DNA of 64,000 bases, from contig JAITVV010000011.1 of the NCBI GenBank assembly GCA_031285625.1, forward strand, positions 1 to 64,000. Direction: 5' to 3'. How positions within the stretch are numbered: position 1 is the stretch's first letter; each line of letters starts with the position of its first letter. Position numbers and translations under genes: made by a program. Below, in pieces: positions 6,701 to 50,069 of this stretch. Origin of the DNA: Prevotella sp. GTDB taxonomy: Bacteria > Bacteroidota > Bacteroidia > Bacteroidales > Dysgonomonadaceae. The notes beneath the pieces are model-generated. The model ran no database searches and was not told the origin of the DNA. It saw only the letters and a program-made list of their open reading frames with translations.

Positions 6701-6786
6701 TGGTATCTACATTGTTAACGATCTTTATAGTACCTGCCATGTATTTATATATATCTACAAATAGAGAGAAGAAAATAGTTAAGTAA
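3754..6786 (+). CDS. RND efflux permease (AcrB/AcrD/AcrF family)
   Basis: 1010 aa; SIKRPV start, GLVVDDAIVVTENI, GLVAKNGILIVEFA and RLRPILMT motifs. Confidence 0.96.
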   Translation: MTISELSIKRPVLATVFVLIIFLLGMIGYTYLGVREYPNIDNPIISVNVTYPGANAEIIENQITEPLEQNINGIPGIRSLTSSSSQGSCRITVEFELSVDLETAANDVRDKVSRAQRYLPRDCDPPTVSKADADANPIIQISIQSEKRSLLELSEIAELTVKERLQTIPNVSAVEIWGQNRYSMRLWLDPVKMASYGITPMDVKNAVDRENVELPSGSIEGDNLELSIRTLGLMQTPEEFNNMIIKEDNYNVVRFMDVGTAELGTENHRSIMRRNGVPAVSTVIIPQPGANQIEISDEAMIRLEQLKKDLPEDVEIGVAFDNTKFIRASIAEVEETVYIAFILVVIIIFLFLRDWRVTLVPCVVIPVSLVGAFFVMYVAGFSINVLSMLAVVLAVGLVVDDAIVVTENIYLKIESGMTPKEAGIEGSKEIFFAVISTTITLVAVFFPIVFLEGMTGRLFREFSIVVAGAVLISAFVALTFTPMLSTKLLKKVDQPNWFYRKTEPFFQWLTNGYHNGLQHFLKYKVIIWPIIALTLAGIGYLVSIIPSEMAPLEDRSQITIRTSGPEGSTYEYNRNYTEKIAVIADSVSPERLINTMRVWTGGGMVSLNLPDIKDRKRSQMEIAGELTKAVRKETAARTFVQQQSTFGGRRSSMPIQYVLQANNIAKLEEFIPEFMKKVQESPMFQMADVNLKFTKPETRIIIDRDKAALLGVSTRDIGQTLQYALSGQRMGYFYMNGKQYQILGEINRQQRNTPLDLKSIYLKNLTGGMIQMDNLVRLEESVAPPQLYRYNRFNSATISAGLSPGVTIGAGLDEMDRIAKETLDDTFRTALAGDSKDFRESSSSLMFAFILAILLIFLILAAQFESFKDPFVIMLTVPLAIAGALLFMYVKDITMNIFSQIGIIMLIGLVAKNGILIVEFANQRQDAGMSKLEAIQGAAVQRLRPILMTSFSTVLGLLPLVFASAEGANGRMAMGVAVIGGMMVSTLLTIFIVPAMYLYISTNREKKIVK

Positions 6787-6872
6787 TTTATCTATAATAA
6801 ACAGATTTAGAATAAAGGTTACAAAAGGTAACATAAAATAACCATTAAAAGCTGTTACTTTTGTCACTTTTT
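6786..6872 (+). repeat. GTAACA/TGTTACTTTTGTCAC intergenic element, copy 1
   Basis: TTATCT 6788, GTAACA ending 6833, core TGTTACTTTTGTCACTTTT 6853-6871. Confidence 0.8.
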
Positions 6873-6893
6873 AGAGAAAGTATAATTAAAATT

Positions 6894-8216
6894 ATGAAAA
6901 AATATTTTTCAATCGTAGTACTGCTCATAGCTTTCCCATGCATATCTGATGCACAAGTTGTGTATAACTTGAAAAGATGTATCGAGACCGGATTAAGGCA
7001 AAACTATGATATCCGTATAATACGTAATAACCAAGAGATTTCAGATAATAATCTCACTATTGGAAATGCCGGGTATTTACCGACGATTGATCTAAATGGA
7101 GGATATTCGGGAACTCTGAATAATACTACCCAGAATTTATCCAATGGAGATAAAAACAAGGATAACGGTGTGCTCAACCAAACACTAAATGCAGGGGTAA
7201 ATCTCAATTGGACTGTTTTTGATGGATTCAACATTCAGACAAACTACAAACGACTGAAAGAATTGCAGAAAATGGGCGAACTCAATACTCGATTGACAAT
7301 CGAAAATTTTATTTCCAATCTGACTTCAGAATATTATAACTATATACAGCAAACTATACGTTTAAAGAATCTCAAATCAGCTGTAAAGCTATCAAAAGAA
7401 CGTTTACGCATAGTTGAGGCGCGTTACGAAATCGGAGCAGGATCACGTTTGGATATGCAACAGGCGAAAGTAGACTTCAATAGCGATAGTTCAAGGTTGA
7501 TTAAGCAATATGAAGTATTGCACACATCACGCACATTATTGAATCAATTGATGGCTGCTGATAATATCGACCAGATAATTATTACGTCCGATTCCGTTAT
7601 AAAATTCAATGAATATCTGAATAAAGAGAATATCTGGCAAAACACACTGTCGTCAAATTCATTTCTATTATTAGCGGGAAAAAATAAAAACCTAAGCCTG
7701 CTTGACCTGAAGGCCGCTCAAAGCGAGAATTACCCATATCTCAGACTAAATGCAGGGTATGGTTATACAAAGAATATATATAATACAGGAACAATAGATA
7801 ATCAGAATAATCTTGGATTGAGTTATGGACTAACAGTAGGATTTAATCTATTTAACGGCTTTAATAATAAAAGAAAACAAAAAAATGCCCGGATAGAGAT
7901 TGAAAATAAAGAACTGGAATATCAGCAAACTATACTATCGTTGAAAGCCGATCTATCTAACATATGGATGGCTTACAAAAATAATATAGAACTAACGAAT
8001 CTGGAGAAAGAAAATGTAGAGACTGCCCGGGAAAATCATGAGATTGCAATAGAACGTTACAAGCTGGGAGACCTATCGGGAATAGAATTACGTGAGGCTC
8101 AAAATAGTTTACTCGAAGCTGAAGAACGATTAGTGCAGGCAGAATATAATACTAAACTATGTGAGATATCATTGATGCAAATAAGTGGGCAAGTTCTTTC
8201 ATATTCTGAGCAATAA
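6894..8216 (+). CDS. TolC family outer membrane efflux channel
   Basis: ATG 6894 gives a signal peptide (MKKYFSIVVLL); the upstream TTG 6861 lies inside the repeat; YLPTIDL, ARYEIGAGSRLD and RYKLGDLSGIELREAQ OEP repeats. Confidence 0.92.
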   Translation: MKKYFSIVVLLIAFPCISDAQVVYNLKRCIETGLRQNYDIRIIRNNQEISDNNLTIGNAGYLPTIDLNGGYSGTLNNTTQNLSNGDKNKDNGVLNQTLNAGVNLNWTVFDGFNIQTNYKRLKELQKMGELNTRLTIENFISNLTSEYYNYIQQTIRLKNLKSAVKLSKERLRIVEARYEIGAGSRLDMQQAKVDFNSDSSRLIKQYEVLHTSRTLLNQLMAADNIDQIIITSDSVIKFNEYLNKENIWQNTLSSNSFLLLAGKNKNLSLLDLKAAQSENYPYLRLNAGYGYTKNIYNTGTIDNQNNLGLSYGLTVGFNLFNGFNNKRKQKNARIEIENKELEYQQTILSLKADLSNIWMAYKNNIELTNLEKENVETARENHEIAIERYKLGDLSGIELREAQNSLLEAEERLVQAEYNTKLCEISLMQISGQVLSYSEQ

Positions 8217-8394
8217 AACAACGAACACATAATATTATTAAACAAAAATCATATATTCGCAACAAAATATACAGATCAGATACAGAAATCAATATATACT
8301 AATAAACAATTAATATGCAACACTATAAACAACGAGAATATCTGATAAAACGAATAAAATTACACCTATTCGCAACCAATAAAAATGAAGCGCA

Positions 8395-9018
8395 TCATTT
8401 CCGTCCAAAGTCAGCAGGAATTTCTCCCCATTCGCTTGTTTTCCATTTGATAATGGGAGTACTATAAGTGTTTTCTCTCAACCATTTTTCGGCACGCTCT
8501 ATCATATAAAACAAAGATTCATTTTCAGGAACTCTTTCCAATTTAGTCTTGCATTTCTTCTCTCTTACCCATTTTATAGCATTCACACTATCTGAATAAA
8601 TAGGTATGGAAAGGTTCTTCTGCTTCAGTAATGCTAATCCATGTACTAAAGCCAAGAACTCACCAATATTATTTGTACCTTGTTCGAAAGGGCCTTGCTT
8701 GAATACTTCTTCTCCAGTCTTAATATAGACCCCTCTATATTCGAGTAAACCGGGATTACCACTACATGCAGCATCTACAGAAAGACTGTCTTTTATTATT
8801 TCGGGTATATTATTTATAGATACTTTCTTCTTTTCAGCCTGCTTTCCAACATAAAGCCAGGGACTATCATTATAAGCTTTTTCAGCAGCCTCCTTATTTG
8901 GAAACGATTTATAAATAGCCCCATCATAACCATCTACTTGTGCCTTACATTCAGGCCAAGATGAATATACTCCAGGCTTAATACCATTCCAAACTACATA
9001 AAAATTCTTTTTTGCCAC
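8395..9018 (-). CDS. rnhA: Ribonuclease HI with N-terminal hybrid-binding (viroplasmin) domain
   Basis: FYVVWNG.KPGVY.SW.EC N-domain; VDAACSGNPG, TNNIGEFLA, YSDS and WGEIPADFGRK. Confidence 0.92.
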   Translation of the reverse strand: MAKKNFYVVWNGIKPGVYSSWPECKAQVDGYDGAIYKSFPNKEAAEKAYNDSPWLYVGKQAEKKKVSINNIPEIIKDSLSVDAACSGNPGLLEYRGVYIKTGEEVFKQGPFEQGTNNIGEFLALVHGLALLKQKNLSIPIYSDSVNAIKWVREKKCKTKLERVPENESLFYMIERAEKWLRENTYSTPIIKWKTSEWGEIPADFGRK

Positions 9019-9036
9019 AATATTATGTCATAAAAC

Positions 9037-9074
9037 AAAAAATATCTGTAAGGATTCTTACAGATACCTTTTTT
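9037..9074 (-). terminator. Intrinsic terminator (possibly bidirectional)
   Basis: TATCTGTAAG-gatt-CTTACAGATA stem flanked by A and T runs. Confidence 0.7.
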
Positions 9075-9089
9075 AATCTATAGTGCTAT

Positions 9090-9374
9090 TTATTTTTCAT
9101 CGAAAAAATCAGAGGCTTTCTTACGAGCCTTATCTGCAATATCATCAACTTTATCTACAAATTTATCTGTATAGCTTTGGGTTTGTTTCGATACATCTGA
9201 AAATAAATTTCTTGCTTTAGAGAGGAAATCTTCCGTTTTTCCTTTAAAGAATTTATCCCAATCGATATCAAGACCTTCCTTATCCATATAGTCTTTAACT
9301 ATAGATACAGCTTTTACAGCTTGTTCTGTTGTCAGTCCGGCTTCGTCCTGTAGTTTCTTTATTAAATTTTCCAT
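9090..9374 (-). CDS. Small hypothetical protein
   Basis: 94 aa, helical and charged, followed by a terminator. Confidence 0.7.
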   Translation of the reverse strand: MENLIKKLQDEAGLTTEQAVKAVSIVKDYMDKEGLDIDWDKFFKGKTEDFLSKARNLFSDVSKQTQSYTDKFVDKVDDIADKARKKASDFFDEK

Positions 9375-9458
9375 TGTAAAACCTTTTAATGCCTATTAGT
9401 AATCTATTTAGTTAGAAAACAATCAGACGATATATAAAGTTTGAAAATTCATATAAAA

Positions 9459-10196
9459 TCAGAAACGGAAACCGATAGAGGCTGAAAAGTTGCGATTCTT
9501 TAACTCCGGATTGCTGCGTGAAATATTATAAAGCCCATACTCATATGATATAATGAAAGTATATATATCATATATCACTCCCACATGAGCATTTAAACCA
9601 TAATCTAACCGCCTCCACATATCAGGGGTAAATGTGTCATATTCACCATCACTCTTATCAGTAACAGGATCAACTCCTTCCGGACCATTTCGATAAGTTA
9701 CTTCTGTGGCAAAATCTCCTTTTCCTTTATAGCCATAGGCTAAATATGCTCCAGCATTAATATTAAAGGCCCATAGTTTGGTAACATATAATTCATAACC
9801 CAAATTGAATGGCACCTGTAAATAGTTACCTGTAGTAGTTCTACGCTCACTGTAATTCAGAACATATATATTGGGATCAGAAGCCCCAAAACCATCCGGA
9901 GCCTTTTTTATATGTTGTTTCAAACCTTTTTTAGTAACAAAGAATCCGGTTTGAAACTGAAAATTATCTATAAGTTTATAATTTACATTAATCCCCAGAT
10001 TTAAACCAATTTTGGGTTGCTTAAATTTATTAACCCCTACTTCATTTACGGCATCCCACATATCCATTTCAGAAATGTTCACTCCTGCACGAATATCAAC
10101 TGTAAGCCTTTTTTTAGGTATATATTGAGCATTAACAGCCGTAATGCTACAAAGAAAGAAACTAATAAGTAGTGATATTTTTATAACTATTTTCAT
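9459..10196 (-). CDS. Outer membrane beta-barrel protein (porin/PorT-like family)
   Basis: Signal peptide; RAGVNIS, NYLQVP and C-terminal SIGFRF; TAACTTTG promoter at 10215-10222 (-). Confidence 0.85.
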   Translation of the reverse strand: MKIVIKISLLISFFLCSITAVNAQYIPKKRLTVDIRAGVNISEMDMWDAVNEVGVNKFKQPKIGLNLGINVNYKLIDNFQFQTGFFVTKKGLKQHIKKAPDGFGASDPNIYVLNYSERRTTTGNYLQVPFNLGYELYVTKLWAFNINAGAYLAYGYKGKGDFATEVTYRNGPEGVDPVTDKSDGEYDTFTPDMWRRLDYGLNAHVGVIYDIYTFIISYEYGLYNISRSNPELKNRNFSASIGFRF

Positions 10197-10228
10197 AAAG
10201 TCAGCATATTACTGCAAAGTTAGAATAA

Positions 10229-11452
10229 TTAATTATATATTAAAGAAAACAAGTTCTTTTCATCAAAAATTTCGTTAGCCACAGCCAGAATCTGATCACT
10301 TGTTATTGATTCTATTTTACTGAAAGTTTCCTCAAAAGAATCATAGTGATTAAAATGTAAGAAACTTTTACCTAAAGATAATGCCATATTTTCATGGTTA
10401 TCGCTCATCACTCCTATTTGCCCAATCAATTGCTTCTTTGCCGCATACAATTGAGCTGTAGTTAACTTATTGTCTTTTAACTTATTCAACTCTTTATGAA
10501 CAAGGCTGATACACTTATCCACATTTTGCTTATCACTACCAAAATAGATCGATGTGATTCCTGTATCCGAGTATGAGGTAACAGATGAATCGACACTATA
10601 TACATAGCCCTTTTTTTCCCGCAGTGATATATTTAAACGGCTATTCATACCCGGTCCGCCTAATATATTGTTAAGTAAGTTTAGTATCCTTCTATTGGGA
10701 TTATCTAAAGAATATGAACGTCCTCCTATCAAAACATGTGATTGTGAAGTTTCTTTCTGCTCTTTTTGGGTAGCAGATGATATTTGCATTGGAGATGACC
10801 TCTGCCCCACTCGCTTGCATACAGGCAAATCAGATAAATATTTTTCTGAAAAGTATATTATTTTCTTAAATTCGGTATTTCCCAATGAGAAAAAAACTGC
10901 ATTGGAAGGTATATAATATCTGTTTACAAATACTTTTGCCTTTTCAGTATTGAAAGTTGATAGTGAGTCCGGATCGCCTAATATGTTATGTCCTATTTCC
11001 GATTCATAAAAAACGAGGTTTTCAAATTCATCAAATATGAGTTCCGACGGATTATCTTCATATGAATGTATCTCATCTACAATAACATCTATTTCTTTCT
11101 CTATTTCTGCTTGAGGAAAGACAGAATGAAAGGTAATATCTGATAATAATTCTATAGCACGGCTAAAGTGTTGTTCCAGAAAAATCGAATATATAACAGT
11201 TTCTTCTTTATTGGTATATGCATTCAGTTCACCACCTACATTTTCCATACGGTTTATGATGTGATGTGAACGTCGTTTGCTTGTCCCCTTAAACAACATA
11301 TGTTCAACAAAATGAGCCATACCGTACTCATCTTGCTTTTCGTCCCGGGTACCTGCATTTACAATAAACCCACAATAAGAAACATTTCCCTCGATAGGTT
11401 TATGTACGATACGGAGACCGTTTTTTAATGTATATGTCTGATAATTTATCAT
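10229..11452 (-). CDS. M16 (pitrilysin) family zinc peptidase
   Basis: Inverted Zn motif HFVEH, LNAYT, GGPGMNSRLNISLREKKG. Confidence 0.93.
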   Translation of the reverse strand: MINYQTYTLKNGLRIVHKPIEGNVSYCGFIVNAGTRDEKQDEYGMAHFVEHMLFKGTSKRRSHHIINRMENVGGELNAYTNKEETVIYSIFLEQHFSRAIELLSDITFHSVFPQAEIEKEIDVIVDEIHSYEDNPSELIFDEFENLVFYESEIGHNILGDPDSLSTFNTEKAKVFVNRYYIPSNAVFFSLGNTEFKKIIYFSEKYLSDLPVCKRVGQRSSPMQISSATQKEQKETSQSHVLIGGRSYSLDNPNRRILNLLNNILGGPGMNSRLNISLREKKGYVYSVDSSVTSYSDTGITSIYFGSDKQNVDKCISLVHKELNKLKDNKLTTAQLYAAKKQLIGQIGVMSDNHENMALSLGKSFLHFNHYDSFEETFSKIESITSDQILAVANEIFDEKNLFSLIYN

Positions 11453-12150
11453 TTCTCCATGTATAATGTACGTTCTTCAGGCGTAAGTTTTTCTATCGAA
11501 TAACGTAACATTGTACGGGGCATTTCTTTAGAATGAAGATTCAGAAAGTTTATTAAAGCATTTTTATCTCTTTTGCCAACTTCACGCAGCATCCAACCAA
11601 TGGCCTTATGCATCAGATCATGTTTATGAGGCAATAATTTCTCTGATAACAAGAGAATATCTTTATGGTCGTTTCGCCTGATAAAAGCAAATGTAGCAAT
11701 AATTGCTATCCGCTGATCCCAAAGTAAAGAACTATCAGCCAATTTATACAGGTCAGAACGATCTTTATCAACCAAGTATTCACCTACTATATCTTTTGCA
11801 CTGATATCCACCAAGTCCCAGTTGTTTATTTGTCTGGTTTGCGAGAGATAGAGATCATAAATCTGCTTCCGTCCCTCCATATTCTTAGTTTTCTTAAAAC
11901 GTTCTACTAAGATCAATAAAGCGCATAAACGACACTCATGATATTCATTCCCTAGCAAGCTAATAACTGCATCAAATGGAATATCTCTATATTTTTTAGC
12001 TATCTTACGGATATCAGGAACGACTACTCCTAAGAATTTGTCACCTTCCCCGTACTGTCCTTTACCTGCTTTGAAAAAGGAAGGAAAGAATTCTTTCTTT
12101 TCAGGAATTGAATATGATTCTAATTCTAACTGGATATCTTTTACAATCAT
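11449..12150 (-). CDS. DNA alkylation repair protein (AlkD-like)
   Basis: GQYGEGDKFLGV, INNWDLVD, HKAIGWMLREVGKR; 4-nt overlap with the M16 peptidase gene. Confidence 0.88.
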   Translation of the reverse strand: MIVKDIQLELESYSIPEKKEFFPSFFKAGKGQYGEGDKFLGVVVPDIRKIAKKYRDIPFDAVISLLGNEYHECRLCALLILVERFKKTKNMEGRKQIYDLYLSQTRQINNWDLVDISAKDIVGEYLVDKDRSDLYKLADSSLLWDQRIAIIATFAFIRRNDHKDILLLSEKLLPHKHDLMHKAIGWMLREVGKRDKNALINFLNLHSKEMPRTMLRYSIEKLTPEERTLYMEK

Positions 12151-12157
12151 GCTTTTA

Positions 12158-12249
12158 CAAAAAGTAACAAAGGTGACAAAAGTAACAAGTATAAGACTAT
12201 ATTTTATTGTTACTTTTCAACTAAAGATATAGTCTCTTTATAAGATAAA
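12158..12249 (-). repeat. GTAACA/TGTTACTTTTGTCAC intergenic element, copy 2
   Basis: Plus strand reads AAAGGTGACAAAAGTAACA 12169-12187, TGTTACTTTT 12208-12217, AGATAA 12243-12248. Confidence 0.8.
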
Positions 12250-12279
12250 TATTCTGATTATTGTTTATAGAGCTGCTTA

Positions 12280-13755
12280 TTACTTAAGCTTCCATTCAGC
12301 ACCATCTTTACCATCCTTGATTTCGAACCCGGCATTGCTAAGTTCATTTCTTATTTGGTCTGATGTTGCCCAATCCTTATTTTCTTTTGCCTTCTGGCGT
12401 ATATCCAACAGAATATCTACGGCTTTGGCAAAGGCATCATTATTTCCACTGTTTACACCCATCGAATCATTACGAATACCTAGTATACCAAAGAAAAACA
12501 CGTCAAACAGATCTTTCAACTCAGATATATCTTCTTTAGTCAGGGTAATATTACCTGCACAAGCGGAATTTATGATGGTACTTCCTTCGCATAAATGGGC
12601 GATGGCCATAGCTGAATTTAAGTCATCATTCAATGCTTCATAACATTTACCCCGCAGCCCTTTTATATCTACAGAAGATGTATCGGATTCCGGAATTCTG
12701 GATATTCTGTCATATGAATCCAATAAACGCTCTAATCCTTTCTCGGATGCTTGCAAAGCTTCGTTGCTGAAATCAACCGTACTACGATAATGGGCTTGTA
12801 AGATAAAGAAACGTATCGTCATAGGTGAATATGCCTGAGTAAGCATTTTATGAGAACCTGTAAAAAACTCATCTAATGTAATAAAATTACCTAATGATTT
12901 TCCCATTTTTTGTCCACCAACAGTAATCATGTTGTTGTGCATCCAATATCTCACAACCTGATGTTTTTCCATTGCCGTATTCTGGGCAATCTCACATTCA
13001 TGATGCGGAAACATCAAATCCAATCCCCCACCATGTATATCAAATTCCTTTCCAAGGTATTTGATACTCATTGTTGAACACTCGATATGCCATCCCGGGA
13101 AACCTTCGCTCCAAGGAGAAGGCCAACGCATTATATGTTCGGGAGCTGCTTTTTTCCACAAAGCGAAATCCACTTTACTTCGTTTCTCATCCTGACCATC
13201 AAGTTCACGTGTGGTATTTAGCATCTCTTCAATATTACGATGAGAGAGGATACCATAGTCGTAATCTTTATTATATTTTTCTACGTCAAAGTAGACAGAA
13301 CCATTGCTCTCATATGCATAACCACTATCCAGAATTTCTTTGATCGCTTCAATTTGCTCTATTATATGTCCGGATGCATGAGGTTCGATAGAAGGAGACA
13401 ATACATTCAAAGCATCCATAGCTTTATGATAACGGTTCATGTAATATTGTACCACTTCCATTGGCTCGAGTTGCTCTAACCGGGCTTTTTTAGCTATTTT
13501 ATCTTCTCCTGTATCAGCATCATTCTCCAAATGTCCTACATCAGTTATATTACGCACATAACGTACCTTATAACCTATATGTGTAAGATACCGAAATAGT
13601 AAATCGAACGTAATAGCAGGACGTGCATGCCCGAGATGACCATCACCATATACTGTAGGGCCACAAACATACATTCCCACATGGGGTGCATGAAGTGGTT
13701 CGAATAGTTCTTTCTTTCGTGTAAGTGTATTATAAATAGATAGTTCTTGTTCCAT
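12280..13755 (-). CDS. cysS: Cysteine--tRNA ligase
   Basis: [32 protein letters not shown]; TATTTTTG promoter at 13782-13789 (-). Confidence 0.98.
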
Positions 13756-13865
13756 AAAACAGGTTGTAATTTTTAGAAATACAAAAATAAGAAAAAAAGT
13801 AATAAGTGATAAGTTATTAGCAAGTGAGTTGTAAGTTATAAAAGCTTTGCTACTTTATTGAAATC

Positions 13866-14207
13866 TTAAGATAAAAAAGAGATTAGATACCAAACAAAAA
13901 TTAAAAATATAAAGCTTGCATAGAATGTAGGCCCTACACCAAATATCATTCCCAATACATAAAGCTTTTCATTTTTCTTATATGCTCTGACAGCACAAAT
14001 AACAGCCAGGGTTATAAACAGTGGAATACTAAAGAATAGTACTGTAAAAAATACCTGATATATCACATCCCATTGTTTAAACATTATATCTGTTGTAAAA
14101 TAAAATATACCGAAAGATACAACGGAAATAAAGCCTGCGGTAATACCAAAAACGGATGCTAAAGCTGTATATGAAATAAGATCTGCCAGTTTGTTCAACA
14201 TAATCAA
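13866..14207 (-). CDS. Small membrane protein (about 3 TM helices), hypothetical
   Basis: Hydrophobic 113 aa; TTGA overlap with dusB stop (alternative ATG at 14201). Confidence 0.6.
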   Translation of the reverse strand: MIMLNKLADLISYTALASVFGITAGFISVVSFGIFYFTTDIMFKQWDVIYQVFFTVLFFSIPLFITLAVICAVRAYKKNEKLYVLGMIFGVGPTFYASFIFLIFVWYLISFLS

Positions 14208-15190
14208 TCTAATTGGAACTGATTAGGTATATTATCTATTATAGAAAAAAGTTCTTCAACAGATTCTGTGCGTAACATTGCAACCCTTATTTTTTTAAAA
14301 TCGGGAATACCCTTAAATACAGAACTGGCAGCCAGATGACGGCGACTATGTATAATACCGCCCCGTTCACCCGAATAAGCAACATTTTTATTTATTAGGT
14401 CTTTGAGTACCTCCAGGTACCATGTAAATTCTTTTTTAGGTAATCTATTCCCTGTATTCAAAAAATGTTTAATCTCTTCAAATATCCAAGGACTACCAAT
14501 ACTTCCCCTTCCAACCATTACCGCATCAACTCCTGTTTCTTCAAACCGCTGTTTACATATTTCAGGAGAAGTTACATCACCATTCCCAATAATAGGAATA
14601 TGCATACGTGGATTGTTCTTTACATCACCAATAAGCGACCAGTCCGCCTCTCCTGTATACATTTGGGAACGGGTACGCCCATGTATAGTCAAAGCTTGTA
14701 TTCCAGTATCCTGTAAACGTTCTGCTAATTCAATTATTATTTTAGAGTCATTATCCCATCCCAAGCGTGTTTTGACTGTTACCGGTATTTTCACTGCTTT
14801 TACTACCGCCTGAGTTATCTCAACCATCAGATCAGGAGTTCTCATCATTCCGGAACCGGCACCTTTACCTGCTACTTTTTTCACAGGACAGCCAAAATTT
14901 ATATCAAGTATATCGGGATTGGCTTCTTCACATATCCTTGCGGCTTCTACCATTGCATCCACTTCCCGCCCGTATATCTGAATTGCTACCGGACGTTCTT
15001 CTTCACTGATAGCAAGCTTTTCCTTTGTCTTATTCACATGACGAATGAGAGCATCACTCGATACAAATTCAGTATATACCATATCGGCGCCAAAGCGCTT
15101 ACATTCAAGGCGGAATCCCATATCTGTCACATCCTCCATCGGCGCAAGAAAGACAGGGTTTTCCGGAAAGATTATATTACCAATCTTCAT
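14204..15190 (-). CDS. dusB: tRNA dihydrouridine synthase DusB
   Basis: LAPMEDVTD, DINFGCP, TIHGRTR, IGNGDV; TATATTTG promoter at 15306-15313 (-). Confidence 0.94.
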   Translation of the reverse strand: MKIGNIIFPENPVFLAPMEDVTDMGFRLECKRFGADMVYTEFVSSDALIRHVNKTKEKLAISEEERPVAIQIYGREVDAMVEAARICEEANPDILDINFGCPVKKVAGKGAGSGMMRTPDLMVEITQAVVKAVKIPVTVKTRLGWDNDSKIIIELAERLQDTGIQALTIHGRTRSQMYTGEADWSLIGDVKNNPRMHIPIIGNGDVTSPEICKQRFEETGVDAVMVGRGSIGSPWIFEEIKHFLNTGNRLPKKEFTWYLEVLKDLINKNVAYSGERGGIIHSRRHLAASSVFKGIPDFKKIRVAMLRTESVEELFSIIDNIPNQFQLD

Positions 15191-15372
15191 AGATAATCCA
15201 TTATTAAGGTCTCAGACCCAGTTTACCACTTTAATAAGCAAACTAACAATTGCTTGTTGATTCGAAAATATTATTTAATACTTATTGTTGCTTATAAAGT
15301 GAGTACAAATATAGATAAGTTTTATCAGATAGAGAAAAATCAGATGAAGCCTTAACTTTTTCAAAGTAACTA

Positions 15373-16074
15373 TCAGACAAGTTTTGTAGCTCTTAACATC
15401 TCACGTTTACCCGGAGGCCCCGGCAGGCGTTCTACTTTATAACCGGCCTGCTGCATCATCCGGCGAACAGCACCTTTAGCACAGTAAGTTACAAGAATTC
15501 CCTGATGATTAGTGATAGAATACAATCGATTAAAAATATCCTGAGTCCACATTTCTGATTGTTTATCAGGGGCGAAGGCATCAAAATAAATCAGATCAAT
15601 TTGTTCTTTGATAAACGAAAAGTTAAACTGAGTAAGGTCAGCCTCTATTTTTGTTAAGTAGAAATTAGGCAATATCTCCACTTCTTTCTCCCACTCTGCA
15701 CCATGTAGCTTATGATATAAATATTGCTCTTCGGTGGAATGCCCTTCGGTATAATTCAAGTTTTTAATTATTGAGGCTGGTAAAGGATAGGCTTCTATTC
15801 CTGTATAATGTACCTTCTTTTGTGTATCCTTTATATTCAACAAGGTTAGAAAAGCGTTTAACCCTGTACCAAATCCAATTTCGAAAATATTGATTTCATC
15901 ACGACCGCAGGCATGTAGACCAGTGTTGATAAATACATGTGTAGATTCCTGTATTGCTCCGTTTACCGAATGATAGTGTTCGTTCAGTTCGGATACGAAA
16001 AGAGTGTGAGACCCATCGGCTGTAAGCTCAATTTTTGGTTTCACACTCATTTCTTCTTTGTGTCTAATTATCAC
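15373..16074 (-). CDS. mnmD: tRNA mnm5s2U34 methyltransferase MnmD
   Basis: TADGSHTL, HYHSVNGA, EIGFGTGLN, YFDAFAP, PGPPGKREM; GTGA overlap with ispF (alternative ATG at 16050). Confidence 0.9.
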   Translation of the reverse strand: MIIRHKEEMSVKPKIELTADGSHTLFVSELNEHYHSVNGAIQESTHVFINTGLHACGRDEINIFEIGFGTGLNAFLTLLNIKDTQKKVHYTGIEAYPLPASIIKNLNYTEGHSTEEQYLYHKLHGAEWEKEVEILPNFYLTKIEADLTQFNFSFIKEQIDLIYFDAFAPDKQSEMWTQDIFNRLYSITNHQGILVTYCAKGAVRRMMQQAGYKVERLPGPPGKREMLRATKLV

Positions 16075-16550
16075 TCCTTTTCAATTAAAGCAACAGCGTA
16101 TGCGGCAAAACCTTCCTCACGCCCAACAAACCCCATTTTCTCAGAGGTTGTTGCTTTAATTGATATATCTTCAACAGAAATTTGAAGTATTTCTGCCATT
16201 ACTTTTTGCATTTGGGGTATGTGCGGATTTATTTTAGGACGTTCGGCACAAATAGTTGCATCTATATTACCTATCCGATAGCCTTTTTCAGTAATTACTT
16301 CCAATGTTTTTTTGAGTAATATCTTACTGTCTACATCCTTATATTCATTGGCTGTATCCGGAAAATGAAAACCTATATCCCGCAAGTTAGCTGCGCCTAG
16401 TATAGCATCGCAAACAGCATGTATAAGTACATCAGCATCAGAATGTCCTAAAAGTCCCTGACTATGCTCTATTTTTATACCCCCCAGCCATAAATCTCTA
16501 TTATCTGCAAGACGGTGTACATCATAGCCAAAACCTACCCTAACCTTCAT
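16071..16550 (-). CDS. ispF: 2-C-methyl-D-erythritol 2,4-cyclodiphosphate synthase
   Basis: GYDVH, GHSDADVLIHA, KATTSEKMGFVGREEG. Confidence 0.97.
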   Translation of the reverse strand: MKVRVGFGYDVHRLADNRDLWLGGIKIEHSQGLLGHSDADVLIHAVCDAILGAANLRDIGFHFPDTANEYKDVDSKILLKKTLEVITEKGYRIGNIDATICAERPKINPHIPQMQKVMAEILQISVEDISIKATTSEKMGFVGREEGFAAYAVALIEKE

Positions 16551-16565
16551 TATATTATAACGTTC

Positions 16566-17729
16566 TTATTTAAATAAATTCTTCATTGCGTCAATGTCAA
16601 ATCCAAGGGAGAAACGTAATGTTTGATCCAGTGGATTTTGTTGTGCTGTAGCCATCATGTACGCTACATCAAGCTGGAATGCACTTAATTTAAATCCGGC
16701 TCCGAATGACATATATTGACGGTTACCTTTCATTTTATTCTCATGGAAATAACCCGTACGCAAGCGGAACTTATTATCATAATCATATTCAGCACCTAAA
16801 GACCACATTATTTCTTTTAGTTCTTCTGAAAATCCACCAGGTGCATCTCCAAACGATTTGAAAATACCGGAAATCGGATTCATTTCACGATAATCAAGCA
16901 TGCGGTCAGCAAATTCCGATGCGGTTTCTCCTTCTTTCTGAACCGGAGGAGTCGGTACAAGATACTTATTTATATCTAAACTAACAGATAATGTACTTAC
17001 ATCATTCATTGGATACATTAACGATGCACCCAGACGTAAATTTGTAGGTAGGAAGTCATGTCTTTCTCCTCCAGTTGTAGCTATCTTGGTACCAATATTT
17101 GATATATTGAAACCAAAGCTCAATAAACTTTCAGATTGTCCCAATGTAATATATGATTCATTATAACCTGCAATATCCGCAGCAAATGCACTACCTGCAG
17201 ATGTACCTTCCGAAGCACCTGTATAGTCTGTACGAATATAACGAACTGTAACGGCTCCAGAGAACGTTTCTGTTAATTTACGGGAATAGCCTATATCGAA
17301 TGCCATCTCATACGGGGATACACTATTAAGGAAGCCTCCATATCCGTCAGTAATACTAACATCTCCGATAGAGAAATAACGGATAGAAGCACTGATAGCC
17401 TGGTTATTTTCATTACCAAGTTTGTAATAACCAACACCATATACTAGAGCTACGTCGTTTATAATCTTTCTTAACCAAGGAGTATATGACAATCCAAATC
17501 CTGCCTTACTCGGATTAAACGCATATTTAGCCGGATTCCAATGTTGGGAATACACATCCGGAGCCGTTGCTACACCGGCATCTCCCATACCGCCACCTCG
17601 GGCGTCCGGAGCTATAACTAACGATGGTACACCCGTAGTTATCGGATTCACATCATCTTGCGCATATGCACCAAGTGCAATTAATGTAAAAATATTTACA
17701 AGCAAGACTACTTTCAAAAAACTCTTCAT
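16566..17729 (-). CDS. porV: Type IX secretion outer membrane shuttle PorV (FadL-like barrel)
   Basis: VPSLVIAPDARGGGMGD, SQHWNPAKYAF, SYTPWL, KGNRQY, NPLDQTLRFSL; adjacent to ispF. Confidence 0.92.
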   Translation of the reverse strand: MKSFLKVVLLVNIFTLIALGAYAQDDVNPITTGVPSLVIAPDARGGGMGDAGVATAPDVYSQHWNPAKYAFNPSKAGFGLSYTPWLRKIINDVALVYGVGYYKLGNENNQAISASIRYFSIGDVSITDGYGGFLNSVSPYEMAFDIGYSRKLTETFSGAVTVRYIRTDYTGASEGTSAGSAFAADIAGYNESYITLGQSESLLSFGFNISNIGTKIATTGGERHDFLPTNLRLGASLMYPMNDVSTLSVSLDINKYLVPTPPVQKEGETASEFADRMLDYREMNPISGIFKSFGDAPGGFSEELKEIMWSLGAEYDYDNKFRLRTGYFHENKMKGNRQYMSFGAGFKLSAFQLDVAYMMATAQQNPLDQTLRFSLGFDIDAMKNLFK

Positions 17730-17871
17730 TTATTCTACTATTTTTTAAGTAATTAATTTAATTTGCTAAGGTTTAATTATAGTTTGTTAGTATCTTTCTT
17801 AAATCTTAATATATAGATAACACTTTTTTATACTATTTATTGTTTCCTCTTGTTTTTTTAACATTTTTCTC

Positions 17872-18498
17872 TCAATAAATATTTATATCCAATAATTCTT
17901 CGCCTTCAAGTTCCCCTATTAGCTTATTTCCAATTGATACTTTACCCACTCCGGCAGGAGTTCCTGTAAATATAAGATCACCTGTCTTTAATGTAAAGAA
18001 ACGACTGGCATATGCTATTATTTTATCTACAGGGTGAATCATTTCTGATGTATTTGCCGACTGTACAATTATATCATCTATTTTCAGCGAAAAGTTTAGA
18101 TTATCAATAGCCTTCCCAAATTTTTCTTTTGGTATAAATCTGCCTACAGCAGCAGAATTATCAAAAGCTTTGGCAATCTCCCAGGGAAGACTCTTTTTTT
18201 TCAATTCTGACTGAATATCTCTGGCTGTAAAATCTATTCCCAAACTTATTTCTTCATAATAGCGATGAGCAAAACGTTCAGCAATATTCTTCCCCATCTT
18301 ATTTATCTTTACTACAACTTCGGTTTCATAATGTATCTCAGACGAAAAACCGGGAATATAAAAATCCTTTTTGTCTCCTGTTAAAAGCGAAGTCTCAGGC
18401 TTCATAAAAAGAACAGGATCATCATCTTTACTGGATAATGCCCTGTTCATTTCTTTATTATGCGATTGGTAGTTTTGACCTACACAAATTATTTTCAT
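17872..18498 (-). CDS. Fumarylacetoacetate hydrolase family protein
   Basis: MKIICVGQNY, HYETE, DFTARD, WEIAKAFD, GDLIFTGTPAG; start moved to 18498 because a TATCTTTG promoter lies at 18522-18529. Confidence 0.92.
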   Translation of the reverse strand: MKIICVGQNYQSHNKEMNRALSSKDDDPVLFMKPETSLLTGDKKDFYIPGFSSEIHYETEVVVKINKMGKNIAERFAHRYYEEISLGIDFTARDIQSELKKKSLPWEIAKAFDNSAAVGRFIPKEKFGKAIDNLNFSLKIDDIIVQSANTSEMIHPVDKIIAYASRFFTLKTGDLIFTGTPAGVGKVSIGNKLIGELEGEELLDINIY

Positions 18499-18538
18499 TC
18501 TCAAGCCGTTAAAAAACACAGCAAAGATACATAAGATT

Positions 18539-19276
18539 TTAATTCTTTTTATGTATTCCTCCAAACATTTGTCTCAAACGCATGGTAATAACCCCAAAAA
18601 CACCTTCTGCAAATATTCCGGAATTCATCTTAGAAGTCCCCAGCATCCTGTTTACAAACACGATTGACACCTCTTTAATTTTAAATTTCAGACAATAGGC
18701 TGTATACTTCATTTCTACCTGAAAAGCGTAGCCTTTGAAACGGATATTATCAAGATCAATAGTTTCGAGCACAATACGCCTGTAACAAACAAACCCTGCA
18801 GTTGCATCATGCACCTTCATTCCGGTAATAATGCGAACATACCTAGAAGCAAAATAAGACATCAATACACGCCCCATAGGCCAGTTTACAACATTAACAC
18901 CGCTATAGTAACGGGAACCTACTGCCAGATCGGCCCCATCATTGGTACAAGCATCATATAGACGTAGTAGATCATTGGGATTGTGAGAGAAATCAGCATC
19001 CATCTCGAATATATATCCATAGTCACGCTCCAGTGTCCATTTAAAACCGGCTATATAAGCTGTTCCCAATCCAAGTTTTCCTGCACGTTCTATAATATGT
19101 AATCTGTTTGAGAATTCATGCTGCAAATCTTTTACTATAGCAGCTGTGCCATCCGGCGAACCGTCATCAATAACCAGAATATCAAATTCCTTTGGTAAAT
19201 CGAATACAGTTCTGATGATAGCCTCAATATTTTCCTTTTCGTTGTAAGTGGGTATGATGACTATTGAATCTGACAT
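18539..19276 (-). CDS. Polyprenol monophosphomannose synthase (GT2)
   Basis: IIPTYNE, DDGSPDGT, GLGTAY, EMDADFSH; TACATTTG promoter at 19299-19306 (-). Confidence 0.93.
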   Translation of the reverse strand: MSDSIVIIPTYNEKENIEAIIRTVFDLPKEFDILVIDDGSPDGTAAIVKDLQHEFSNRLHIIERAGKLGLGTAYIAGFKWTLERDYGYIFEMDADFSHNPNDLLRLYDACTNDGADLAVGSRYYSGVNVVNWPMGRVLMSYFASRYVRIITGMKVHDATAGFVCYRRIVLETIDLDNIRFKGYAFQVEMKYTAYCLKFKIKEVSIVFVNRMLGTSKMNSGIFAEGVFGVITMRLRQMFGGIHKKN

Positions 19277-19493
19277 TTCCTAAATAAATATTAAGTTACA
19301 AATGTAATATATTAAGTATTGATAAATAAGTTTTTCGTTAACAAAAAAAGAAAAAATATCGACGTAAATATTTATAAAAGAGCTTTTATCTATCATATTA
19401 AAAAAAATTAATACCTATTTATGGAATTTTAAAGTCTTTCATATCTATTAAGTACAAAGAGAACAATTGTATAACATTTTAAAACTTACAGAT

Positions 19494-20339
19494 ATGAAAA
19501 ACTCAGTAAACTTAAACTCGTCAGAATGGTGTGATATAATTTTTGAAGGAAAGAACAAATCATATGGAGCTTTTGAATTACGCCAGTCTTCATGGAAAAG
19601 ATATATCATCGCTTTTGGAATAATGTTGTTAATAGTTTCATTCGTAGCCGCACTACCTGCTATCATCAGTACTGTGAAAGCGGCAACAGGCACACGAGCA
19701 GAAAATGTAAAAGATATATATACAGTAATGGATATAGATAATACACCATTAAACAAAGTAGAAGAAGTTGTTAAACCAACTGTTCCGGAACCTCCTAAGT
19801 ATATGGCCATGACTAAGTTTGTGCCACCGACAATTACTAAAGATACAGAAGTACCAGATGATAATCCGGATATGGCAATCATGGATGACGTAGCAAAAGG
19901 AAATGATGCTATTGGAGCCTTCACTGTAGAAAATGGTTCAAAAGATGCTGATGCAATCCGTAAAGAAATAGAACGCGGTTTAGCCAGTGGAAACGGGACT
20001 AAAGAACCAGAAGATGCGCCTAAGACATTTGTAAGAGCCGAAGTTATGCCACAATTCCCCGGTGGAGACTCTGAAATGTATAAATTTATAGCAGATAATC
20101 TTAAATATCCTGTAGTAGACCAGGAAATGGGAGTACAAGGACGCGTTACAGTACGATTTGTAGTAAGCAAGACAGGAGAGATAACCAACATAGAATTGAT
20201 AAAAGGAATTAGCCCTACTTGTGACAAAGAAGCTTTAAGAGTAATAAAGAGCATGCCTAAATGGGTTCCGGGTAAACAAAGCGGAAATCCGGTACAAGTA
20301 TACTTCACTATGCCTATTGTTTTCAGATTGAAATCATAA
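19494..20339 (+). CDS. tonB: Energy transducer TonB
   Basis: DIIFEGKNKSYGAFELR, one TM helix, MPQFPGG, LKYP, QGRVTVRFVV, MPKWVPG TonB_C domain. Confidence 0.92.
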   Translation: MKNSVNLNSSEWCDIIFEGKNKSYGAFELRQSSWKRYIIAFGIMLLIVSFVAALPAIISTVKAATGTRAENVKDIYTVMDIDNTPLNKVEEVVKPTVPEPPKYMAMTKFVPPTITKDTEVPDDNPDMAIMDDVAKGNDAIGAFTVENGSKDADAIRKEIERGLASGNGTKEPEDAPKTFVRAEVMPQFPGGDSEMYKFIADNLKYPVVDQEMGVQGRVTVRFVVSKTGEITNIELIKGISPTCDKEALRVIKSMPKWVPGKQSGNPVQVYFTMPIVFRLKS

Positions 20340-20358
20340 CAAGTACTATCAGATTAAT

Positions 20359-20407
20359 AAATAAGGGAAGAGGCTGTTTCGATTGAATTCAGCCTCTTCT
20401 CTTATTT
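20359..20407 (+). terminator. Hairpin terminator after tonB
   Basis: AAATAAGGGAAGAGGCTG-N13-CAGCCTCTTCTCTTATTT inverted repeat. Confidence 0.75.
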
Positions 20408-20517
20408 GATTATTTTTTGAAAAATTGTATTGACTAAGATAGTTATAGAAAGGGTGGACATTTTTTTTCTTATCTTTAGCGAGAAAAGTAAATTCTAACA
20501 CAACTAACACAACCATT

Positions 20518-21576: not shown

Positions 21577-21593
21577 ATAAAAGGATAATTATC

Positions 21594-21631: not shown

Positions 21632-21635
21632 TAAA

Positions 21636-22397: not shown

Positions 22398-22399
22398 AT

Positions 22400-23665: not shown

Positions 23666-23900
23666 AAAATCGAAGACACTTTTTGATAAATGAGTAATAA
23701 TAAGTGATTATGATTCAAAAATATATGATCAAGTACTTATTGCATTTTCTTCTTACAAAGAAAGAAATTTTGATCGAGAGGCAGCAACAAAAAACATTAA
23801 AAGATTACAGCCTGTTGAAAAGTTTATTTTCCATAAAAAGCAACAAATAAAATGATACTTCAATAAATATAACTTACTATAAATCAACTATAAAATATAA

Positions 23901-23982
23901 AAAAGTGACAAAAGTAACAGTTTTTAGTCCGTTTTCAATTGTTACATTATCATCTAAACAAAGAGCTCTTTATATAAGATAA
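23901..23982 (-). repeat. GTAACA/TGTTACTTTTGTCAC intergenic element, copy 3
   Basis: Plus strand reads AAAAGTGACAAAAGTAACA 23901-23919, TGTTAC 23940, AGATAA 23977-23982. Confidence 0.8.
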
Positions 23983-41149: not shown

Positions 41150-41257
41150 CTTTTGTCATGTTGAACGCAGTGAATTGAAAATCGGCAGAGCGAAGGGGAG
41201 CCAAACTCTCGTGTTAATTAGGATCGAGATTCTATGTTACACTCAGAATGACAAAGA
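41150..41257 (+). repeat. TGTCAT...ATGACA palindromic repeat, long form, copy B
   Basis: Highly similar to 24039-24145. Confidence 0.9.
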
Positions 41258-43196: not shown

Positions 43197-43271
43197 TTTT
43201 GTCATGCTGAGGTAACGAAGCATCTCGTCTCCTTTCAGGCAAGAAATTTCACTCCGTTCAAAATGACAAAA
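43197..43271 (-). repeat. TGTCAT...ATGACA palindromic repeat, short form, copy D
   Basis: TTTTGTCATGCTGAGGTAACGAAGCATCTCG...ATTTCACTCCGTTCAAAATGACAAAA shares both arms with copy C but has a short different centre. Confidence 0.8.
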
Positions 43272-44530: not shown

Positions 44531-44621
44531 TTTATCTATATAATGCAGATAACAAGTAGATTATCCGATAAAAAAGGTTACAATAAAAAGTAACTGAAAT
44601 GTGTTACTTTTGTCACCTTTT
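44531..44621 (+). repeat. GTAACA/TGTTACTTTTGTCAC intergenic element, copy 4
   Basis: TTATCT 44532, GTTACA ending 44582, TGTTACTTTTGTCACCTTT 44602-44620; extra TGTTACCTTTT near 44668. Confidence 0.8.
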
Positions 44622-44716
44622 AATATATAATAATATGATTATAAGCAATATAACAATTTAATAATTGTGTTACCTTTTATTAAAATACAGATCCTAACGA
44701 ATAAAGAAATAGTATT

Positions 44717-47575: not shown

Positions 47576-47579
47576 AAGG

Positions 47580-48438: not shown

Positions 48439-49728
48439 ATGATGTTTACAGTAAAAAAAATGATGATGAAAAGCCTTTTGGTATGCTCTGTAGCTGCCTT
48501 ATCTTTTACATCCTGCGATGGTGGAGGTCAGCCCAATACTCTCACCGAACAAGAAAAAGCAGACGGATGGCAACTTTTATTTGATGGAACCACGATGACC
48601 GGATGGCGGGACTATAACGGGACAAGCCTTACCGAGCCATGGCATGTAGTAGACGGATGCATACAAGCCAAGGGAGATGGAAGTGATGCCAGTGGTTATA
48701 TTGTTACAGACAAACAATATGAAAACTTTGAACTTTCATGGGACTGGAAGCTATCAAAAGGTGGAAATAGCGGTATGCTATATCATGTTGTAGAAAGGCC
48801 TCAGTATAAAGTACCTTATGTAACAGGACCTGAGTACCAGCTTATCGATACTCCTAATTTTCCTGAAAAGCTGGAAGATTGGCAAGATATGGGTGCTGAC
48901 TATGCAATGTATGTTCCGGATAAAGCCAAGATGAAAGTTAACCCTCAGGGAGAATGGAATAATTCTAAGATTGTGTTTGATAATGGCCATGTAGAACATT
49001 GGTTGAATGGAGTTAAGATAGTAGAATTTGAAGCATGGACAGAAGACTGGTTCGCCCGTAAAAATAGCGGAAAATGGAATGATGCTCCTGAATATGGTTT
49101 AGCAAGAAAAGGCGTATTGTGCTTACAAGATCATGGATATCCGGCATCTTTCCGCAATATTAAAATAAAAGAGCTTCCTCGTAAGAATAAAGAAGTAAAT
49201 CTTTTTAATGGAAAAGATTTAGATGGATGGCAAGCATACGGAACAGAGAAATGGTATGTAAAAGATGACCTGCTAATATGCGAAAGTGGCCCGGATAAAC
49301 AATATGGCTATCTTGCCACTCGTGAATACTATGATGATTTTGATCTGACAGTTGAGTTTAAGCAAGAAGCTGACGGTAACTCAGGTGTATTTATCCGTTC
49401 GTTTATTGAAGAAGGAGTTAAAGTAAACGGATGGCAGGTAGAAGTGGCTCCAAAAGGACATGGCACCGGTGGTATCTATGAATCTTATGGAAGAGGCTGG
49501 CTGATACAAATACCAAAAGAAAAAGAAGAGTTTCTTAAAGTAGGAGACTGGAACACCATGCGTATCCTTGTACAAGGCGATAAAGTAACCACTTGGCTGA
49601 ACGGACAAGAGATGGTTAACTTCCAGGATGATAAAATAGGTGCGGGTCAAGGCCGCATTGCATTACAAATCCATGATGGAGGAGGTATAAAAGTATTATG
49701 GCGTAACTTGAAACTGAAAACACTGTAA
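48439..49728 (+). CDS. Lipoprotein with two DUF1080 (3-keto-disaccharide hydrolase) domains
   Basis: Lipobox FTSC; duplicated LF.G....GW, GNSG and LQ.H motifs. Confidence 0.9.
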   Translation: MMFTVKKMMMKSLLVCSVAALSFTSCDGGGQPNTLTEQEKADGWQLLFDGTTMTGWRDYNGTSLTEPWHVVDGCIQAKGDGSDASGYIVTDKQYENFELSWDWKLSKGGNSGMLYHVVERPQYKVPYVTGPEYQLIDTPNFPEKLEDWQDMGADYAMYVPDKAKMKVNPQGEWNNSKIVFDNGHVEHWLNGVKIVEFEAWTEDWFARKNSGKWNDAPEYGLARKGVLCLQDHGYPASFRNIKIKELPRKNKEVNLFNGKDLDGWQAYGTEKWYVKDDLLICESGPDKQYGYLATREYYDDFDLTVEFKQEADGNSGVFIRSFIEEGVKVNGWQVEVAPKGHGTGGIYESYGRGWLIQIPKEKEEFLKVGDWNTMRILVQGDKVTTWLNGQEMVNFQDDKIGAGQGRIALQIHDGGGIKVLWRNLKLKTL

Positions 49729-49744
49729 CTATATTCTCATAATA

Positions 49745-49930
49745 AAGAAGGTGTGTCAAAAGTAAAACAGCACAATCAAAGTGTTAGCCTCTTTGTCATC
49801 CTGAGTGTAACGAAGAATCTCGATCCTAATTAACACGAGAGTTTGGCTCCGCTTCGCTCTGCCGATTTTCAATTCACTGCGTTCAACATGACAAAAAGAA
49901 AGTGAAAATTACTTTTGACACAGCCTCTTA
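49745..49930. mobile_element. MITE-like element with TGTGTCAAAAGTAA terminal inverted repeats enclosing palindromic repeat copy C (49790-49896, minus orientation)
   Basis: Perfect 14-bp inverted repeat at 49752-49765 and 49909-49922, extending imperfectly outward; inner segment is the reverse complement of copies A/B. Confidence 0.7.
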
Positions 49931-49982
49931 TTTTCAACTCTTCCCTTTCAATTCTTTCGAAGTTTATAAAGTTCAATATTAA

Positions 49983-50069
49983 TTATCTTATTATACAACT
50001 TCACTAATTTGTGAAAAGAAAAGTAACAAGTTCAAAATAATAAAATACCTGTTACTTTTGTCACCTTTT
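49983..50069 (+). repeat. GTAACA/TGTTACTTTTGTCAC intergenic element, copy 5
   Basis: TTATCT 49983, GTAACA 50023-50028, TGTTACTTTTGTCACCTTT 50050-50068. Confidence 0.8.

Follow-up and report, generated by a model that had tools for sequence, protein, structure and literature searches.

We analysed a window of 64,000 nt (contig JAITVV010000011.1, positions 1 to 64,000, of the Prevotella sp. assembly GCA_031285625.1), which contains five copies of an AT-rich, non-coding element of ~85-90 bp. Our best explanation, to which we assign a probability of roughly 0.6, is that a ~0.8-kb unit carrying a helix-turn-helix (HTH) gene gave rise to a family of ~190 short non-coding derivatives, of which the five copies are members. 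The longer unit consists of a TTATCT leader, a gene for an HTH protein of ~220 amino acids, and an array of 9-bp GTNACYTTT boxes. Sequence comparison shows that the short element consists of the two ends of this unit without the coding region: the 5' leader with its TTATCT box is kept, together with the last codons and the 3' flank bearing one inverted and two direct boxes. The genome under study (G000) comprises 4.84 Mb in 96 contigs with 37% G+C, the window being its contig C34, and its genes were called with our own simple open reading frame (ORF) caller (3899 genes, 89% coding).

The exact 15-nt core of the element, TGTTACTTTTGTCAC, was found in the window at 6853(+), 12173(-), 23905(-), 44602(+) and 50050(+). 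When up to two mismatches were allowed, the window gave seven matches as compared with 0.22 expected, and none of 100 shuffled sequences reached seven. A first-pass annotation, made from the letters of the window, had placed five copies of a repeat at these sites, and the core is indeed exact in all five. The copies have a common layout, namely a TTATCT box, an inverted AAGTNACA box, a spacer of 20-22 nt and the core.

The exact core occurs 81 times in G000, and a profile built from these copies yielded 192 matches at E<0.01, corresponding to 191 distinct cores. Ungapped stacking of the copies revealed a conserved stretch only from -33 nt to the 20th base of the core. The layout that the first-pass annotation described for the five copies was borne out, but its 19-bp core is really a pair of tandem 9-bp boxes, GTYACYTTT, each of which begins with GTTAC or GTCAC and ends in TTTT or CTTT. 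Direct boxes stand at +1 and +10 in 181 of 189 copies, with a third one at +19 in 15 copies and an additional one at +65/+66 in 20. An inverted box (AAGTNAC) lies at -26±1 in 164 of the 189, and the spacer from the inverted box to the core measures 20-22 nt in 158 of 173 copies possessing such a box, with a mode of 21 nt. The inverted pair noticed earlier is therefore present, but its members are separated by 27 bp centre to centre, or ~2.6 helical turns, and not by two. A TT[AG]TC[TA] box is found upstream in 157 of the 192 matches, 55-74 nt before the core in 122 of these, and no conservation was seen further left than this box among the G000 matches. Tandem half-sites of the response-regulator type were considered and dropped, since the period of the boxes is 9 bp and not 10-11 bp.

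The relationship to a longer unit is seen most directly in the copies on contigs C26, C41 and C89, which lie at or near contig ends and are 98% identical over the 290 nt to the left of their cores. This stretch is the 3' end of a gene whose product ends in ...PPGYRYRR; its TGA stop falls within the inverted box, and 21 nt separate the inverted box from the core. Gene 5' ends are found at three contig ends (C36, C86 and C81), and three diverged full copies at C80, C15 and C87. At least three near-identical gene copies break the assembly at contig ends, which points to recent copying. Among near-identical copies, similarity stops right past the core and, on the left, 20-45 nt before a TTATCT box, and several short elements retain the leader up to the bases just ahead of the lost ATG. 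The repeat profile matched the ends of the ...PPGYRYRR gene with E values of 2.6e-17 to 5.6e-16, and two other G000 paralogues with 2e-8 and 1e-6. At its 3' end this multi-copy gene is colinear with the element's right half, which was the decisive lead. No recombinase, for which the first-pass annotation had suggested looking, was found linked to the sites.

The same arrangement was observed in a comparison of 35 genomes of the genus Dysgonomonas (the others being labelled G003, G005, G008, G016, G032, G038 and so on). Tandem boxes follow all eight paralogues inspected in G032, G038, G008, G005 and G003 (there in the local variant), and five of seven in G016, G039 and G004; in a sample of 17 G003 paralogues, they follow within 80 nt in 12 and within 150 nt in 14. 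A TTATCT box precedes 8/8 paralogues of the five other genomes, and a TTATCT-type box each of the 17 sampled in G003. In G000, TTATCT lies upstream in five of the six gene 5' ends shown, C87 having one further upstream. Chance would supply ~0.17 TTATCT-type boxes per 300 nt, by arithmetic from base composition. Furthermore, gene family members in six genomes bear versions of the tandem boxes particular to their species or subfamily, and the box variant tracks the protein subfamily: in G003 as in G000, GTCAGATGT-GTCAGGTTT lies within the final codons of one and the same subfamily, GTTACTTTC-GTTAC is found in G008 and G003, and GTCAGGTTT in G016. The commonest solo variant in each genome is the one attached to its commonest paralogues.

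Gene and element also occur together. A profile of the gene family gave 0 to 23 matches per genome of the genus, and the degenerate 19-mer TGTYACYTTTGTYACYTTT, with which elements were counted across the genus, was present in 27 of the 35 genomes at 0 to 514 copies, the preferred variant differing by species. The two counts correlate over the 35 genomes with a Spearman coefficient of 0.67, a figure that is descriptive only because it comes from related genomes. Five genomes without the gene hold 0, 0, 0, 3 and 0 elements, and the gene is present in 21/21 genomes with at least 15 elements. G016 has 18 genes and one element; its own box, GTCAGGTTT, follows its genes and occurs 33 times there. 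In G016 (L184, L185 and L187), GC-rich palindromic blocks of the GGCCCC...GGGGCC type also separate the HTH gene start from its TTATCT box and recur past the stop; these look like a REP-like (repetitive extragenic palindromic) family of that species. Elsewhere in the order, the gene profile matched 2 of 166 genomes at 1e-15, each with a single match of ~170 amino acids, and in a library of 1.84 billion proteins the profile retrieved 75 representatives at 1e-30 and 1881 at 1e-3.

The parent protein matched the Pfam families Phage_term_sma (PF07141; 1e-7, above the cut-off), Sf6_terminase (PF20901; 6e-7) and HTH_Tnp_1 (6e-6), as well as PHROG 309, terminase small subunit (6e-12). NCBIfam gave only weak matches to the HTH parts of transposases. 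Public records name members of the family as bacteriophage terminase small subunit, phBC6A51-type HTH protein, transposase or hypothetical protein. An AlphaFold model based on a 9-row alignment (mean predicted local distance difference test score, 69.7) predicts a three-helix HTH and a long helix, together with a beta hairpin, two more helices and a tail that is disordered. Foldseek returned 3hef and 2ao9 (Sf6 gp1 and the phBC6A51 protein) with probabilities of 0.9-0.99 and E values of 0.09-0.4, the alignments covering the first 65-79 columns only. The modelled N-terminal HTH resembles that of small terminases. No phage or large-terminase genes adjoined the five paralogues whose neighbours were read or scanned; neighbours that could be assigned to a family were ordinary chromosomal genes. 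A Pfam scan of the neighbours in G000 identified cobalamin synthesis, a CarboxypepD_reg-domain protein, a polysaccharide synthesis protein and proteins without a Pfam match; flanking ORFs in G032 and G003 were read by eye, a MerR regulator in G032 being the only one scanned. The HTH units themselves lie co-oriented between genes. One full unit (L216, G000:C15:56298-58709) is placed directly before a 171-amino-acid ORF that has no Pfam match and a Polysacc_synt gene, and so heads a possible capsule locus. We suggest that the boxes would be the binding array of the HTH protein, such binding being a prediction. The constraint by a protein that the first-pass annotation had proposed is plausible, with the HTH protein as a candidate.

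In the genomes searched, the family is confined to Dysgonomonas. Only G000 and one congener have the exact 15-mer in large numbers; in the latter, 389 copies often form head-to-tail arrays with a period of 92-100 bp. Exact-core matches in a scan of species-representative genomes belonged almost throughout to Dysgonomonas species, and the exact core was not seen in 12 genomes of other families. Eight congeners lack any copy. In one array (G011:C26:180-900), the core is repeated up to seven times head to tail every 92-100 bp, the filler consists of low-complexity short TACAAG/TGCAAG-like repeats, and a single TTATCT box stands at the array start. Integron attC and CRISPR-like (clustered regularly interspaced short palindromic repeat) arrays were considered for that congener and set aside, the units being a core plus low-complexity filler.

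Comparison of orthologous sites revealed both persistence and turnover. In the nearest relatives, whose genes are ~76% identical at the DNA level, copies 1 and 2 of the window occupy the same sites, with boxes intact and spacers diverged; in more distant genomes, no match to copy 1 (eight genomes) or copy 2 (four genomes) was found in the fetched segments, whose coverage of each gap is unconfirmed. On a 388-kb contig of G038 (median amino-acid identity to G000, 81%), 8 of 14 elements have a G000 counterpart before the orthologous gene, and conversely, 7 of 16 G000 elements over the same contig have a counterpart in G038. Filled and empty sites, which the first-pass annotation suggested seeking in relatives, could be aligned between G000 and G038, and the differences are discrete blocks; at one site, two genes with a 4-nt overlap in G038 are set apart in G000 by the element, with ~230 bp in total. 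The element is old at many sites and recently copied at some. Among the readings offered by the first-pass annotation, relics of a small mobile element fits best, in that the copies appear as coding-deleted forms of the longer unit, range from none to several hundred per genome, and differ at about half of the sites between species.

The element is almost exclusively intergenic (190 of 191 copies by our ORF calls) and strongly oriented. It points toward the 5' end of a co-oriented downstream gene in 170 copies and toward a 3' end in 13, the remaining eight having no called neighbour. The co-orientation rate with a called downstream gene is accordingly 170/183, as compared with ~59% expected from the mix of intergenic types; in the window, all five copies run with the downstream gene, as the first-pass annotation had noted. 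In tandem gene contexts, 117 copies run along the genes and three against them. Of 92 tandem-context copies, 22 have a TTATCT box that begins at most 7 nt from the upstream stop codon, and 48 one that begins at most 26 nt from it, and the core ends 13-35 nt before the next start codon in ~45 copies, the others being spread up to 600 nt. All 15 neighbour pairs within 300 bp in G000 are on the same strand. With regard to replichore polarity, the one-contig genome G003 has its two strands interleaved over tens of kb among the first 100 of its 194 sites, which, with origin and terminus unmapped there, speaks only weakly against an orientation set by replication.

We propose that units and short derivatives spread, or once spread, into intergenic DNA without target duplication, and that only insertions co-oriented with local transcription would persist, also inside operons. 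Persistence in the sense orientation may result from its being non-polar, either because read-through passes the insert or because outward transcription is provided. Strict co-orientation with transcription, together with the placement right past stop codons, could also be expected of an RNA element, in which the inverted and first direct boxes would form a hairpin in the transcript that processes, stabilises or terminates the mRNA. The right half of the element does fold at ~-10 kcal/mol (z ~-2.3), but the opposite strand folds equally well (z ~-2.4), and the centre bases of the paired boxes show no co-variation (A:T 60, A:C 40, T:T 35, G:T 19, G:C 5). In addition, the stem is AT-rich with a 20-nt loop, and the 64-kb window gave no Rfam match at the gathering score. 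The lack of co-variation and the equal folding of both strands make an RNA hairpin under selection unlikely, and we regard this explanation as extremely improbable.

A promoter function calls for closer consideration. The primary-sigma promoter of Bacteroidota is composed of a -33 TTTG and a -7 TAnnTTTG element, and in G000 the latter motif peaks 15-35 nt ahead of start codons, far above the reversed control. Like this promoter, the first box of the element reads TAnnTTTG (as TAYTTTTG) in 122 of 191 cores, and about a quarter of the copies lie at the usual distance from a start codon. The match to a -7 box that the first-pass annotation recognised in the core is present in these 122 and missing in the other 69, which mostly read CAC. 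Where a copy lies 13-35 nt from a start codon, its first box may double as a -7 box. The core end lies within 46 nt of the start in 52 genes, none of which has another -7 box in between, so that about a quarter of the genes could have the element as their sole promoter. One could accordingly regard the family as a working cis-regulatory network, that is, a portable promoter/operator with TAYTTTTG as the -7 box, whose ~190 sites would be activated or repressed by the HTH paralogues and would persist because their regulatory role is selected for, not as selfish DNA. The preservation of boxes amid diverged spacers at orthologous sites, the orientation bias and the existence of a candidate cognate DNA-binding protein family, identified by sequence, would suit such a network.

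Nevertheless, several observations do not accord with it. Unlike the Bacteroidota sigma promoter, the element has no TTTG 19-21 nt upstream of the first box, where the consensus is A-rich (AATAAAAACA) with low or A-specific information, and the TA is often replaced. The TA form is not enriched where the element would be the sole promoter (32/52, as compared with 66/104 where the core is further off). Those 104 genes, representing two thirds of the copies, have a -7 box of their own at the background rate (40/104 versus 601/1892). Eight congeners do without any copy, and the boxes of the parent unit come after the regulator gene, not before it. The target genes share no theme: the 156 downstream genes include no paralogue cluster larger than two and resemble the genome in length and in crude signal-peptide share, and the window targets are mixed (genes for outer-membrane efflux, for DNA alkylation repair, for a radical SAM protein, for a product lacking Pfam matches and for an S9 peptidase). 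An undescribed regulon with DNA-repair targets, as the first-pass annotation had surmised, was therefore not supported. Its portable promoter-operator cassette was not demonstrated either, but such a role is possible for about a quarter of the copies; the data show no selection for it. Taken together, we consider a regulatory network unlikely as the explanation of the family. Two public runs labelled RNA-Seq gave a flat depth of ~21-22 over window positions 5001-25000, with contigs of up to 21 kb running across all genes; they behave like genomic DNA and are uninformative on transcription. Joints or loose ends of run contigs at 6873, 12187-12188 and 23900 reflect no more than the breaking of assemblies at the repeat. 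Contigs of related strains in public runs also had ~461 bp swapped for 435 letters at 13755-14217 and skipped 41-45 bp at 15233-15283; both are indels between strains and unrelated to the repeat.

Another possibility is that the core is mainly a target or attachment site, at which the HTH gene, the short element and other repeats would pile up as cassettes. In three copies in G038/G032, the two boxes have a 29-nt module precisely between them; it is polymorphic at one site and recurs at the centre of another repeat family. These copies (L136-L175) are at G038:C23 near 14214, 119994 and 170952 and at their G032 counterparts, one site being present in G032 and absent in G038; in G000 (C28, C52, C80, C86, C91 and C96), the module is the centre of copies of a TTGTCAT-type repeat. 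A second multi-copy repeat, found at five contig ends of G000 (C12:1-125, C46:1-117, C49:3-209, C58:3-209 and C83:39134-39250), also ends with the core. It has at least five copies with an unassembled interior, lacks an inverted box, and was not found in the 34 congeners. Co-oriented doublets and arrays are common as well, including every close pair in G000, many in G003 and arrays of up to seven in one congener, but tandem arrays may also arise by unequal crossing-over. Against a pure target-site model, no recombinase was found linked to the sites, and the retention of both HTH unit ends by solo copies is not what that model predicts. The core may also attract other inserts, but as the principal explanation we judge this highly unlikely.

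Descent of the copies from the HTH unit is the reading that we prefer, and a number of observations weigh against it. The element has no terminal inverted repeats, as its left edge is a TTATCT box, its right edge direct 9-bp boxes, and its sole inverted repeat internal. No target-site duplication was detected: the longest flank repeats of 128 copies were distributed as in shuffled pairs. Pfam, PHROGs and NCBIfam revealed no domain of a transposase, recombinase or nuclease in the parent protein. The TTATCT-type box is missing in 35 of the 192 matches. Over the 72 nt upstream of the core, the median identity to the best neighbour within G000 is only 0.76, indicating that most copies are old. Between G038 and G032, which are ~93% identical (flanks mostly 91-96%), 13 of 14 sites are kept and one is replaced, so that mobility is low at best. 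The co-variation of box and subfamily may reflect common descent of the gene plus its flank, not recognition. Lastly, gene and element do not always go together, as G035 has six genes and no element by our pattern, and G039 has 13 genes and 15 elements.

The positions of the five window copies and their surroundings are listed in Table 1. Lying between the gene for an AcrB-type pump and that for its outer-membrane partner, copy 1 is inside an efflux operon. The S9 peptidase gene has a conserved -7-type box of its own nearer to its start than copy 5, as the first-pass annotation had cautioned.

Table 1. Copies of the element in the window, with their component boxes and neighbouring genes.
Feature	Positions	Strand	TTATCT box	Inverted box(es)	Core	Setting
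Copy 1	6788..6872	+	6788-6793	6814-6823, 6824-6833	6853-6872 (two 9-bp boxes plus T-run)	TTATCT box 1 nt past stop of AcrB-type pump gene; outer-membrane efflux (OEP/TolC-like) gene downstream, ATG at 6894
Copy 2	12159..12248	-	12248-12243	12217-12208	12187-12159 (three tandem 9-bp boxes)	DNA alkylation repair gene downstream, start 12150; cysS upstream
Copy 3	23900..23972	-	23972-23967	23948-23940	23919-23900	Divergent gap; directed at radical SAM gene (start 23665, 234 nt off)
Copy 4	44532..44621	+	44532-44537	44573-44582, 44586-44594	44602-44621	NamZ-like gene (stop 44519) before; gene without Pfam match (start 44717) after
Extra single direct box GTTACCTTTT	44669..44678	+				67 nt past copy 4 core start
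Copy 5	49983..50069	+	49983-49988	50020-50028	50050-50069	S9 peptidase gene downstream

A second repeat family was noticed in the window, at 24042-24142, 41153-41254, 43199-43269 and 49793-49894. Its members measure ~70-100 bp and have true terminal inverted repeats (TTGTCATNNTGA ... reverse complement). The window holds eight such ends as compared with 0.28 expected, and copies are often beside or inside the element studied here. One copy in G038 is absent from the same site in G032, so this family looks recently mobile.

Short dispersed repeats have been well studied in Proteobacteria and Firmicutes and poorly in Bacteroidota, and for many repeat families we know of no parent or partner protein. 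The present pair of repeat and parent does not seem to have been described: in listings and abstracts, we found no paper on Dysgonomonas repeats or on multi-copy terminase-small-subunit-like genes of Bacteroidota. It ties a repeat family of up to ~500 copies per genome to one small gene, present as up to 23 paralogues among housekeeping genes; it corrects the annotation of genes recorded as 'bacteriophage terminase small subunit', and it offers a testable protein-site pair and a possible case of repeat spread without a recognisable transposase. Strict co-orientation and insertion within operons, such as that of AcrB-TolC, make it a natural system for studying how inserts avoid polarity or supply promoters in Bacteroidota. 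More speculatively, and with distinctly poor odds, the family might be a transposase-less parasite or a domesticated network. In that case, a terminase-small-subunit-like HTH protein, alone or with a host replication, recombination or packaging machine, would recognise arrays of 9-bp boxes, and would either copy its own gene and stripped derivatives into transcribed intergenic DNA, or mark ~200 sites as pac-like packaging entry points or as a genus-wide operator set.

[quoted passage not shown] Like MITEs, the element is short, non-coding and intergenic, occurs in tens to hundreds of copies, is patchy among close species, and has both ends in common with a longer coding unit; MITEs can also carry outward promoters. 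Unlike MITEs, it lacks terminal inverted repeats and target-site duplication, in the protein of the longer unit an HTH (HTH_Tnp_1, terminase small subunit) but no catalytic domain was recognised, and the co-orientation with genes, at 117 to 3, is far stronger. The BrickBuilt MITE of Porphyromonas gingivalis is similarly a modular short repeat in a member of Bacteroidales; it is a MITE with a minisatellite, for which the abstract states no link to an HTH gene, and the comparison is one of descriptions only (PMC4596501). REP sequences and bacterial interspersed mosaic elements (BIMEs), with their RAYT (Y1) genes, are likewise high-copy extragenic repeats, often in regularly spaced clusters and tied to one gene family, and act as protein-binding sites; as compared with the account of them in the passages of PMC2817692 concerned, our element has no GC-rich palindrome of 20-40 bp, and its clusters run head to tail rather than alternating. 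A Y1 transposase partner was rejected, as its presence is inconsistent across genomes: Y1_Tnp (PF01797) had no matches in G000 and G033 and single ones in G003, G005, G017 and G038, two of them with internal stops, and no core lay within 35 kb of the G003 match at 2.267 Mb among the sites listed. Finally, phage small terminases and their pac sites, as portrayed in the relevant part of PMC4737164, differ in that our paralogues had no phage or large-terminase neighbours (five paralogues), number up to 23 per genome and are accompanied by ~190 solo arrays; they are alike in the N-terminal HTH fold type and in that repeated sites with A/T tracts form an array within or next to the gene.

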